Source: Vicinamibacterales bacterium (GTDB lineage: Bacteria; Acidobacteriota; Vicinamibacteria; Vicinamibacterales; CAVVIG01). Taken from it: 64,000 nt of DNA. Location of the stretch: positions 1,592 to 65,591 of the forward strand of contig JBAUGX010000176.1 in NCBI GenBank assembly GCA_049679965.1, given 5' to 3'. Positions 11,716 to 12,693 of the stretch are shown here, piece by piece. Under the pieces are notes generated by a model. The model saw only the letters and a list, made by a program, of their open reading frames with translations. It had not been told where the DNA came from and searched no databases. Within the stretch, counting starts at the first letter, position 1, and every line of letters starts with the position of its first letter. The translations under genes and the position numbers were made by a program.

Positions 11716-12693
11716 ATGCCGCAGGACGACTACATCCGCGTGACCTACGGCGAACCCCACGCCACGCGCGGTCGACAGATGCTGGCGGCGCACCCCGACC
11801 TGCGCTCGTTGGCCGGCCCGATGCCGTCGAGCGCCCTGTGGGTCGTCGCGCTGACGGCGGCCCAGATGGCGCTGGCGGTATTCGTGGGTCCGATGAGCTG
11901 GATGGTCTGGCTGCCCTGTGCCTATGTCGCCGGCGCCACGATCGATCACGCGCTGTGGGCGATGATCCACGACTGCTCGCACAACCTCGTGTTTCGGTGG
12001 CGTACGGGGAACCGCCTGGTGGCGATTTTCGCGAACATTCCGCTCGTCTTCCCCGCGGCCATCGCGTTCTGCAAGTACCACCTCCTCCACCATCGCCACA
12101 TGGGCGACCCGGAATTGGACGCCGGCGTGCCTGGGCCGACCGAGGCCCGCGTGGTGGGTCACTCCGGTGCGATGAAAGCCCTGTGGCTTGCGGGCACGTT
12201 CTTCGTACAGGGGGTCGTCCGGGTCAGACGGTTCACCACCATTCCCTTCCTTGATTTCTGGACATCGATGAACATCATCTTCCAGCTTGGAGCGATGTTC
12301 CTCTTGTACCGGTGGGCAGGCTGGCCGGCTCTCAAGTACCTGACGACCTCGAGCATCTTCGCCATTGGCCTCCACCCGCTCGGGGCGCGGTGGATTCAGG
12401 AGCACTTCGCCCTGGTCCCGGGTCAGGAGACGTACTCGTACTATGGCCCGCTCAATAAGGTGTGCTTCAATCTGGGCTACCACAACGAGCACCACGACAT
12501 CGTGACCGTTCCGTGGGCGCACCTCCCGGAGATTCGCCGTCGCGCTCCTGAGTTCTACGACGGACTGCACTCCTACGATTCCTGGACGGCGCTGCTCATC
12601 CGCTTCGTCCGCGAGTGGAACATCACCCTCTTCTGCTACATCATCAGGCCTGCGCGGCGCGCAGGCACCGCGCAGACACCAGCGAACCGATAG
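11716..12693 (+). CDS. Sphingolipid Delta4-desaturase (DEGS/DES1-like), full length
   Basis: ATG 11716 gives MPQDDYIRVTYGEPHATRGRQMLAAHPDLRSL, matching the DEGS1 N-terminal Lipid_DES block ([27 protein letters not shown]). It has His boxes HDCSHN, HLLHHRH and HNEHHD. Confidence 0.9.
   Translation: MPQDDYIRVTYGEPHATRGRQMLAAHPDLRSLAGPMPSSALWVVALTAAQMALAVFVGPMSWMVWLPCAYVAGATIDHALWAMIHDCSHNLVFRWRTGNRLVAIFANIPLVFPAAIAFCKYHLLHHRHMGDPELDAGVPGPTEARVVGHSGAMKALWLAGTFFVQGVVRVRRFTTIPFLDFWTSMNIIFQLGAMFLLYRWAGWPALKYLTTSSIFAIGLHPLGARWIQEHFALVPGQETYSYYGPLNKVCFNLGYHNEHHDIVTVPWAHLPEIRRRAPEFYDGLHSYDSWTALLIRFVREWNITLFCYIIRPARRAGTAQTPANR

Follow-up and report, generated by a model that had tools for sequence, protein, structure and literature searches.

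Vicinamibacterales bacterium G000 (a soil acidobacterium; assembly GCA_049679965.1; 3.97 Mb in 272 contigs, ∼67% guanine + cytosine [GC]) raises the question of why one bacterial genome should carry two diverged genes of the dihydroceramide desaturase (DEGS) family, one at either border of a cluster of ceramide genes. The stretch of DNA analysed, referred to as the window, is 64,000 nucleotides (nt) long (G000:C176:1592-65591). It contains a complete DEGS-family gene, DES_R (11716..12693, + strand), and the 3′ 229 codons of another, DES_L (1..690, + strand). To our knowledge, genetic work on bacterial sphingolipid synthesis has reached dihydroceramide and some head groups but no later steps, and the Acidobacteriota, one of the most abundant bacterial groups in soil, are not usually counted among the sphingolipid producers. 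The reading favoured here, and judged fairly probable, is that DES_L and DES_R both code for working membrane di-iron oxidases of the DEGS family, whose most likely substrate is the sphinganine part of the dihydroceramide that the cluster produces, DES_L being of the ancestral type and DES_R of a derived one.

The DES_R open reading frame (ORF) runs from ATG 11716 to 12693 and encodes 325 amino acids (aa). A preliminary description of the locus had reported DEGS sequence blocks and three His boxes here, and each block that it quoted was found in the ORF, which carries YIRVTYGEPHATRGRQMLAAHPDLRSL, HDCSHN, HLLHH, ETYSYYGPLN and GYHNEHHD. A start at GTG 11644 was considered and rejected, since the ATG is where homology starts and lies 6 nt after the end of a conserved −35/−10 pair. 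DES_L, truncated in the window, is whole on the contig, where it extends to G000:C176:2281 from either an ATC at 1331 or a GTG at 1355; that is, it starts 261 or 237 nt upstream of the first base of the window. Its frame is open, with no stops, and its product matches residues 5-315 of DES_R (E 7.6e-142, 63% identity), with the His boxes HETAHN, HLLHH and HNEHH in place of HDCSHN, HLLHH and HNEHH. The preliminary description had allowed that the left copy might prove a fragment or a pseudogene; with the flanking sequence recovered, it is neither. The arrangement it gave, two DEGS-like paralogues in direct orientation 11 kb apart, was confirmed: the two + strand genes are separated by 11,025 nt. 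Public assemblies, which are independent but derive from the same population, show each DES gene in the same context. One of these, ENA ERZ795399 NODE_88 (60 kb), holds both genes in the same arrangement, and the pair is therefore not an assembly artefact.

Both products are members of the DEGS family. DES_R matched the Pfam models Lipid_DES (PF08557; 33.3 bits, cutoff 23) and FA_desaturase (PF00487; 82.5 bits), and DES_L, when read from ATC 1331, matched them at 27.6 bits (cutoff 23) and 79 bits, respectively. The presence of the Lipid_DES N-terminal domain in both copies argues against their being generic acyl-lipid desaturases, an outcome that the preliminary description had named as fatal to its own claim. 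The two copies showed 32–40% identity to vertebrate DES1/DES2 over 306–322 aligned positions (E 1e-55 to 1e-72), the values for DES_R being 32–37% across ∼315 aa. Twelve His residues, including those of the three His boxes, are invariant among 38 bacterial and six vertebrate sequences (H15, H78, H85, H89, H122, H125, H126, H220, H230, H256, H259 and H260), and all are kept in DES_L and DES_R. The eukaryotic enzymes DES1/DEGS1 (dihydroceramide Δ4-desaturase) and DES2/DEGS2 (bifunctional desaturase/C4-hydroxylase; KEGG K04712) have the same PF08557 plus PF00487 architecture, and share with the bacterial pair, besides the twelve His, the invariant motifs ETYSYYG and HxEHHD.

An AlphaFold2 model of DES_R (mean predicted local distance difference test score, pLDDT, 90.9; predicted template modelling score, pTM, 0.88) was compared with the PDB using Foldseek. 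The matches were 8xqw_M (E 2.7e-5, TM-score 0.61), the alkane monooxygenase AlkB (8sbb_A, E 7.9e-4) and the stearoyl-CoA desaturase SCD1 (4zyo, E 0.038). As modelled, DES_R has the membrane di-iron oxygenase fold of the desaturases and AlkB. A sequence-profile search of the PDB returned no relative. The match that surpassed AlkB and SCD1, 8xqw_M (also 8xks_K), is a subunit of the chloroplast Ycf2/Orf2971-FtsHi motor complex of Chlamydomonas; judged from this model comparison, the subunit too seems to be folded like a desaturase.

Over their full length, DES_L and DES_R are identical at 195 of 316 aa (62%) and share 66% nt identity, with 48% identity at third codon positions. The synonymous divergence (dS) between them is ∼1.07 and the nonsynonymous divergence (dN) ∼0.32, giving a dN/dS of ∼0.30. 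Comparison of DES_L with its orthologue in G002, a genome of the same genus in which the gene is 88% identical and lies at the same position, gave a dN/dS of 0.15; the values for the neighbouring ceramide genes were 0.14 (bCerS-like), 0.12 (CerR-like), 0.11 (ligase) and 0.05 (the serine palmitoyltransferase gene, spt). For DES_R and its nearest relative of the same type (locus L031) the ratio was ∼0.22, with dS near saturation. These values support the proposal in the preliminary description of an old split with purifying selection on both copies. That proposal had been based on a count of 108 identical bases in 132 (positions 1-132 against 11977-12108), which a recount reproduced exactly; 20 codons differ in this stretch, 12 of them synonymously and eight nonsynonymously. 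The 82% identity of the stretch, which spans the conserved His-box-2 region, was examined as a possible product of gene conversion between the two copies. This was rejected, since each copy has all eight of the residues diagnostic of its own clade and none of those of the other.

The clades are those of the family phylogeny. In a tree of 98 rows, ten vertebrate DES1/DES2 sequences, the sole eukaryotes included, grouped as a single long-branched clade outside all the bacteria. The bacterial sequences grouped largely by phylum. If the label ‘eukaryote-type’, applied to these genes in the preliminary description, is taken to mean transfer from eukaryotes, it finds no backing in the tree: the bacteria form a phylum-coherent radiation of their own. 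With vertebrates as the eukaryotes sampled, the tree holds no evidence of transfer, and the label looks to be a naming habit, and a misleading one. The Acidobacteriota clade (support 100/99) consists of a basal group, an R clade and an L group. The R clade (13 rows, 100/99) holds DES_R and the L group (14 rows, 93/50) holds DES_L; R and L join with 98/90 support. The R clade is a derived sub-family limited to Vicinamibacterales-like genomes. The vertebrate DES1/DES2 pair is likewise a pair of paralogues within one genome, and in both systems the pair may divide desaturation from hydroxylation; the vertebrate split, however, is independent of the L/R split, which falls inside the Acidobacteriota.

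Eight alignment positions separate the R clade from the L clade, and each G000 copy has all the states of its own clade. Polarisation against other bacteria and vertebrates identified G137, A82, A232 and L233 as derived states of R. The Asp replaced by Gly at position 137 is invariant in every other sequence sampled, those of vertebrates included. At positions 231-233, directly after the invariant E229-H230, the R clade has changed from YVF to FAL (EH-YVF to EH-FAL), and H85 of His box 1 comes three residues after position 82. On this polarisation R is the derived form, altered close to the presumed metal ligands.

What the two enzymes act upon is suggested by the genes between them. Serine palmitoyltransferase (Spt) is encoded at 3255..4460 (− strand), with a match to the NCBIfam equivalog model NF047599 at 515.3 bits (cutoff 500). 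Immediately preceding spt, and likewise on the − strand, are two genes identified by domain and position: one for a fatty acyl-AMP/ACP ligase of 562 aa, AasR-like (4472..6160; AMP-binding, 200 bits; 491 bits to the fatty acyl-AMP ligase model NF006624, under its cutoff of 600), and one for a dedicated acyl carrier protein (ACP) of 86 aa, AcpR-like (6161..6421; PP-binding, 51.7 bits). On the + strand, nearer DES_L, lie a gene for a GNAT-like N-acyltransferase, candidate bCerS/CerS (1099..2277; weak Acetyltransf_1 match, 24 bits), and one for a short-chain dehydrogenase/reductase (SDR) of the NAD-dependent epimerase/dehydratase family, candidate CerR by synteny (2286..3245; Pfam Epimerase, 143 bits). 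The acyltransferase gene adjoins the SDR and spt genes in at least 20 related loci, and nearly every related locus that has the cluster has a DES gene beside its acyltransferase or SDR gene. The same five gene types were shown genetically to function in dihydroceramide synthesis in Caulobacter crescentus (aasR CC_1165, cerR CC_1164, acpR CC_1163, spt CC_1162 and cerS CC_1154; PMC11324152). The bCerS and CerR roles are assigned as candidates by domain type, conserved synteny and analogy with CC_1154 and CC_1164 (PMC11324152). The pathway upstream of the DES enzymes is thus of the bacterial Spt/AcpR/AasR/bCerS/CerR type, whereas that of eukaryotes is of the KDSR/CerS type.

The locus also differs from that of Caulobacter. 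The one tailoring oxygenase reported there is a DesA-family fatty acyl hydroxylase encoded elsewhere in the genome (CC_0202; PMC11324152), not a DEGS-type enzyme as in G000. Further, the G000 cluster adds a gene for a PRK07208-family flavin adenine dinucleotide (FAD) oxidoreductase (6470..7978, − strand; 709.9 bits to NF005548, a model named ‘hypothetical protein’), which heads the ACP-ligase-Spt run and is kept in G002 and in G001, a second genome of the genus. This oxidoreductase is outside the bacterial ceramide pathway as described. There follow, identified by Pfam and all on the + strand, genes for a TraB/GumN-family protein (8086..8952), a flavin amine oxidase (8949..10301) and an amino-acid permease (10418..11647), which separate the ceramide genes from DES_R and come in the same order after the cluster in G001. 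TraB/GumN genes were also seen near the cluster in other family members (L039, L043, L044 and G021). At the other end, between DES_L and the acyltransferase gene, a DUF2914 protein gene (697..1074, − strand; PF11141, 44.6 bits) occupies the same position in both same-genus genomes.

A further gene set was seen directly upstream of DES_L, past the left edge of the window, on a longer public contig (L119:76-5893, ENA ERZ795399 NODE_88). It comprises genes for a PMT_2 membrane protein (546 aa), an unknown protein of 195 aa, a PAP2_3 protein (265 aa), a phosphoenolpyruvate (PEP)-mutase::nucleotidyltransferase fusion (564 aa; TIGR02320, 286 bits, just under the cutoff), a split phosphonopyruvate decarboxylase (161 + 188 aa) and a class-V aminotransferase. 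This composition suggests an aminoethylphosphonate-type head-group module, a further difference from the Caulobacter locus, and the lipid product may be a ceramide phosphonate.

The preliminary description had treated the intervening genes as an island which the two copies, acting as direct repeats, might excise or amplify by homologous recombination. The two same-genus genomes and many other members of the family keep the block in synteny, and its GC content and GC content at third codon positions (GC3) match those of the flanks, so it is a resident locus and not an island. The copies do lie on the same strand and flank the cluster, as such an event would need. RecA-dependent recombination, however, drops steeply with divergence and needs identical runs of about 23 nt or longer, and at 66% nt identity the longest exact run common to DES_L and DES_R is 23 nt, followed by two of 19 nt. 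Moreover, the region between the copies is kept in G001 although neither DES gene is, whereas excision would have had the reverse effect. Recombination of the 11-kb region through the two copies is accordingly regarded as extremely improbable.

The ceramide neighbourhood might itself be incidental, with the DES enzymes acting on a fatty acyl chain, a hopanoid or a carotenoid. Weak partial matches to the NCBIfam models for CrtW, CrtR and DesA, all far under the cutoffs, would fit such a substrate, as would some R-type and L-type genes of relatives that have no ceramide gene within 10 kb (L037, L038, L046, L047 and L051-L054). Nevertheless, the Lipid_DES N-terminal domain found in both copies is specific to sphingolipid enzymes, and within the class DES genes occur only in one family, the sole sampled family of the order with Spt. 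Outside the class they are found in the Bacteriovoracaceae, Sphingomonadales, Chitinophagaceae, Sphingobacteriaceae and Myxococcota, all known sphingolipid producers. A non-ceramide substrate thus appears quite improbable.

If the favoured reading is correct, the pathway would begin with the AasR-like ligase loading an acyl chain onto the dedicated ACP, and with Spt condensing that chain with serine. The GNAT acyltransferase and the CerR-like SDR would complete the dihydroceramide, and the DEGS enzymes would attack its C4 using O2 and two electrons, yielding either a 4,5-double bond or a 4-hydroxyl group. DES_L would be the ancestral-type enzyme, given its conserved site by the acyltransferase gene and the residues it has in common with other bacteria and vertebrates; DES_R would represent the derived clade, marked by D137G and by the change from YVF to FAL after the Glu-His pair. 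Since R has replaced D137 and YVF, the two might be expected to differ in chemical outcome or in preferred substrate. A difference in product (4-ene versus 4-hydroxy) or substrate is plausible in view of these substitutions and of a field correlation involving ceramides and phytoceramides (PMC9969633). The more specific proposal that the R clade, with D137G and EH-FAL as its marks, became a C4-hydroxylase (phytoceramide-forming), or was otherwise re-specialised, from a desaturase-type ancestor and independently of vertebrate DES2, is put forward as a speculative one, unlikely as matters stand.

The two genes also differ in their putative expression signals, found by aligning the upstream regions of orthologous genes (L029-L034 and L036-L049). 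Upstream of DES_R is a promoter-like element (11680..11715, + strand) consisting of TTGCGC (11680-11685), an 18-nt spacer and TACGGT (11704-11709), the last separated by 6 nt from ATG 11716. The layout typical of R (CTTGCG, 17–18 nt, TACCTT, 6–7 nt, start codon) is conserved in L029, L030, L031, L032, L033 and L034. This conservation implies that the DES_R transcript would be leaderless or near-leaderless, and independent of the permease gene. In most L-type genes (motif GCTAACGTATGT), TAACGT lies 7–8 nt before a GTG. Motifs placed 6–8 nt before start codons suggest that leaderless mRNAs may be usual for DES genes in the Vicinamibacterales. Generic sigma-70 and terminator scans around both DES genes gave nothing useful. 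DES_L itself has no ATG, GTG or TTG where the DEGS homology begins (L002:1320-1357, 272 to 235 nt before the first base of the window); there, a GAGGAG Shine-Dalgarno sequence is followed after 6–7 nt by ATC. The same combination of Shine-Dalgarno sequence and ATC is present in G002 and in L041, and L041 is also without the downstream GTG. The start codon of DES_L is thus probably the non-canonical ATC. Public gene calls take the downstream GTG, which costs the protein four conserved residues (DYIR) and the Lipid_DES match, so that the called product, of 308 aa, has PF00487 as its sole recorded domain.

The main rival to the favoured reading is redundancy: DES_L and DES_R may be isozymes with one reaction and one ceramide substrate in common, set apart solely by expression level or by regulation, for instance by temperature, oxygen or desiccation. 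The contrast just described, between a −35/−10 pair 6 nt before an ATG and a Shine-Dalgarno leader with an ATC, fits such a division; further, all the catalytic His are identical in the two enzymes, most relatives have L or R alone beside the same cluster, and species of one genus carry different types. Interchangeable enzymes do not readily explain, however, why the R clade alone lost an Asp that is invariant in all the other bacterial and vertebrate sequences sampled, why a three-residue change became fixed right after the invariant His230, or why both copies have been retained for so long at dN/dS values of 0.15–0.3. Redundancy is therefore considered possible, if rather doubtful.

Several observations weigh against the favoured reading. 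No assay of any bacterial DEGS homologue was found in a literature search that covered few subscription journals, and the substrate and product assigned to the DES enzymes are therefore putative. The same search, which extended to acidobacterial sphingolipid genetics and to K04712, yielded PMC9969633 and PMC11324152 as its relevant papers. The bCerS and CerR assignments were made from domain type and synteny only, and NCBIfam holds no model for either. No gene for an electron donor (cytochrome b5 or ferredoxin) was identified near the DES genes, and in this the bacterial pair, with no evident cytochrome b5 partner, differs from the vertebrate enzymes. The occurrence of a single type in most relatives, and the swap between L and R within one genus, which comprises L-only and R-only species, fit interchangeable enzymes as well as distinct ones. 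Finally, the retention of the cluster in G001 without DES genes indicates that the modification is dispensable.

The origin of the pair was approached through the same relatives. G001 (97% complete) keeps the whole cluster and has neither DES gene, with clean junctions at both sites (L026:4695-6504 and L113:1-2100): DUF2914 directly abuts PMT_2 where DES_L would be, and the permease gene is followed by two small unrelated ORFs (95 and 150 aa) with no match in G000, as is the case for the whole 757 nt after that gene. In G002, the DES_L orthologue is in place and the contig ends before the expected R site. The Zn-peptidase gene that follows DES_R in G000 was searched for in G001 and G002 and not found. 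From these two genomes, the DES genes can be described as accessory modules for tailoring, placed on either side of a conserved core. Elsewhere, R-only genomes have the R gene divergent, beside the acyltransferase gene, while L-only genomes have the L gene in tandem before the acyltransferase or SDR gene.

It is therefore conceivable, although short of probable, that no duplication took place in this genome: DES_R would have been taken up as a xenologue from a different Vicinamibacterales lineage, where R evolved as the local orthologue, and DES_L would be the native gene. The spt genes linked to R-type DES form a clade of their own (93/84), apart from that of the G000 genus, so R could have evolved with one lineage of the cluster. 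The G001 synteny stops exactly after the permease gene, at the site DES_R occupies in G000; in G000, R is not beside the acyltransferase gene, unlike in R-only genomes; and DES genes are patchily distributed (six of the 401 genomes of the class). Yet DES_R has host-like composition (GC 0.645, GC3 0.856), and its place in the tree is deep within the R clade, at the end of a long branch of its own (0.32) and with no donor close to it. In addition, a second bin carries both R and L (L046 and L052), and the L/R split within a genus also fits ancient paralogy with differential loss. Given the separate R-linked Spt clade, an ancient duplication followed by differential loss and a later acquisition of R by transfer between relatives are both plausible, the former being rated slightly higher.

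The nearest named loci come from metagenome-assembled genomes (MAGs) assigned to the Vicinamibacterales, Vicinamibacteria or Acidobacteriota. Among 41 relatives, eight had a DES homologue and 14 had Spt, all in one family. A survey of 401 genomes across the class found DES homologues in six, again in one family, and two copies in G000 only; the second bin with one R-type and one L-type gene was met among 80 loci collected. Both G000 genes are, then, ordinary members of a large annotated branch, and it is their presence together in one genome that is rare. Clustered at 90% identity, the proteins of the bacterial family form at least 5805 clusters (334 at 50% identity with E ≤ 1e-30), and species-representative genomes hold at least 585 loci, distributed over the Acidobacteriota, Bdellovibrionota, Nitrospinota, Bacteroidota, Pseudomonadota, Myxococcota and Planctomycetota. 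Many bear the JGI names ‘sphingolipid delta-4 desaturase’ or ‘sphingolipid 4-desaturase/C4-monooxygenase’. Two homologues contain an in-frame stop, L009 (G018:C243:1350-2297, TAG) and L110 (G241:C3:1476233-1477177, TGA), which could reflect pseudogenes, sequencing errors or recoding. Three loci (L034, L046 and L052; CAZOIK01 and CAZOAZ01) come from MAGs labelled ‘Bifidobacteriaceae’ or ‘Bifidobacterium sp.’; these labels look wrong, as the DES and Spt loci nest inside Vicinamibacterales clades.

Bacterial DEGS homologues are numerous and routinely annotated, and the G000 genes add to a known branch. Their added interest lies in the rare co-occurrence of L and R, in the recognisable derived R sub-family and in the abundance of the phylum in soil. 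A soil lipidomics study asked whether the Vicinamibacteraceae are the makers of the ceramides and phytoceramides whose levels go up in dry soil, lipids which it found to be correlated with a Vicinamibacteraceae amplicon sequence variant (ASV) (PMC9969633). The present locus and its relatives show that the required genes are present. An ancestral and a derived enzyme in one genome, set apart at a few sites next to the metal-binding His, also offer a compact comparison for desaturation versus hydroxylation, the same question that is posed by human DES1 and DES2. Were the R clade indeed re-specialised for hydroxylation, G000 would make both 4-unsaturated and 4-hydroxylated ceramides, probably with a phosphonate head group. 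The L/R pair would then serve as a minimal natural system in which to identify the residues that set a DEGS enzyme to desaturate or to hydroxylate, and the locus would supply the genes behind the ceramides and phytoceramides tracking the Vicinamibacteraceae in drying soils.

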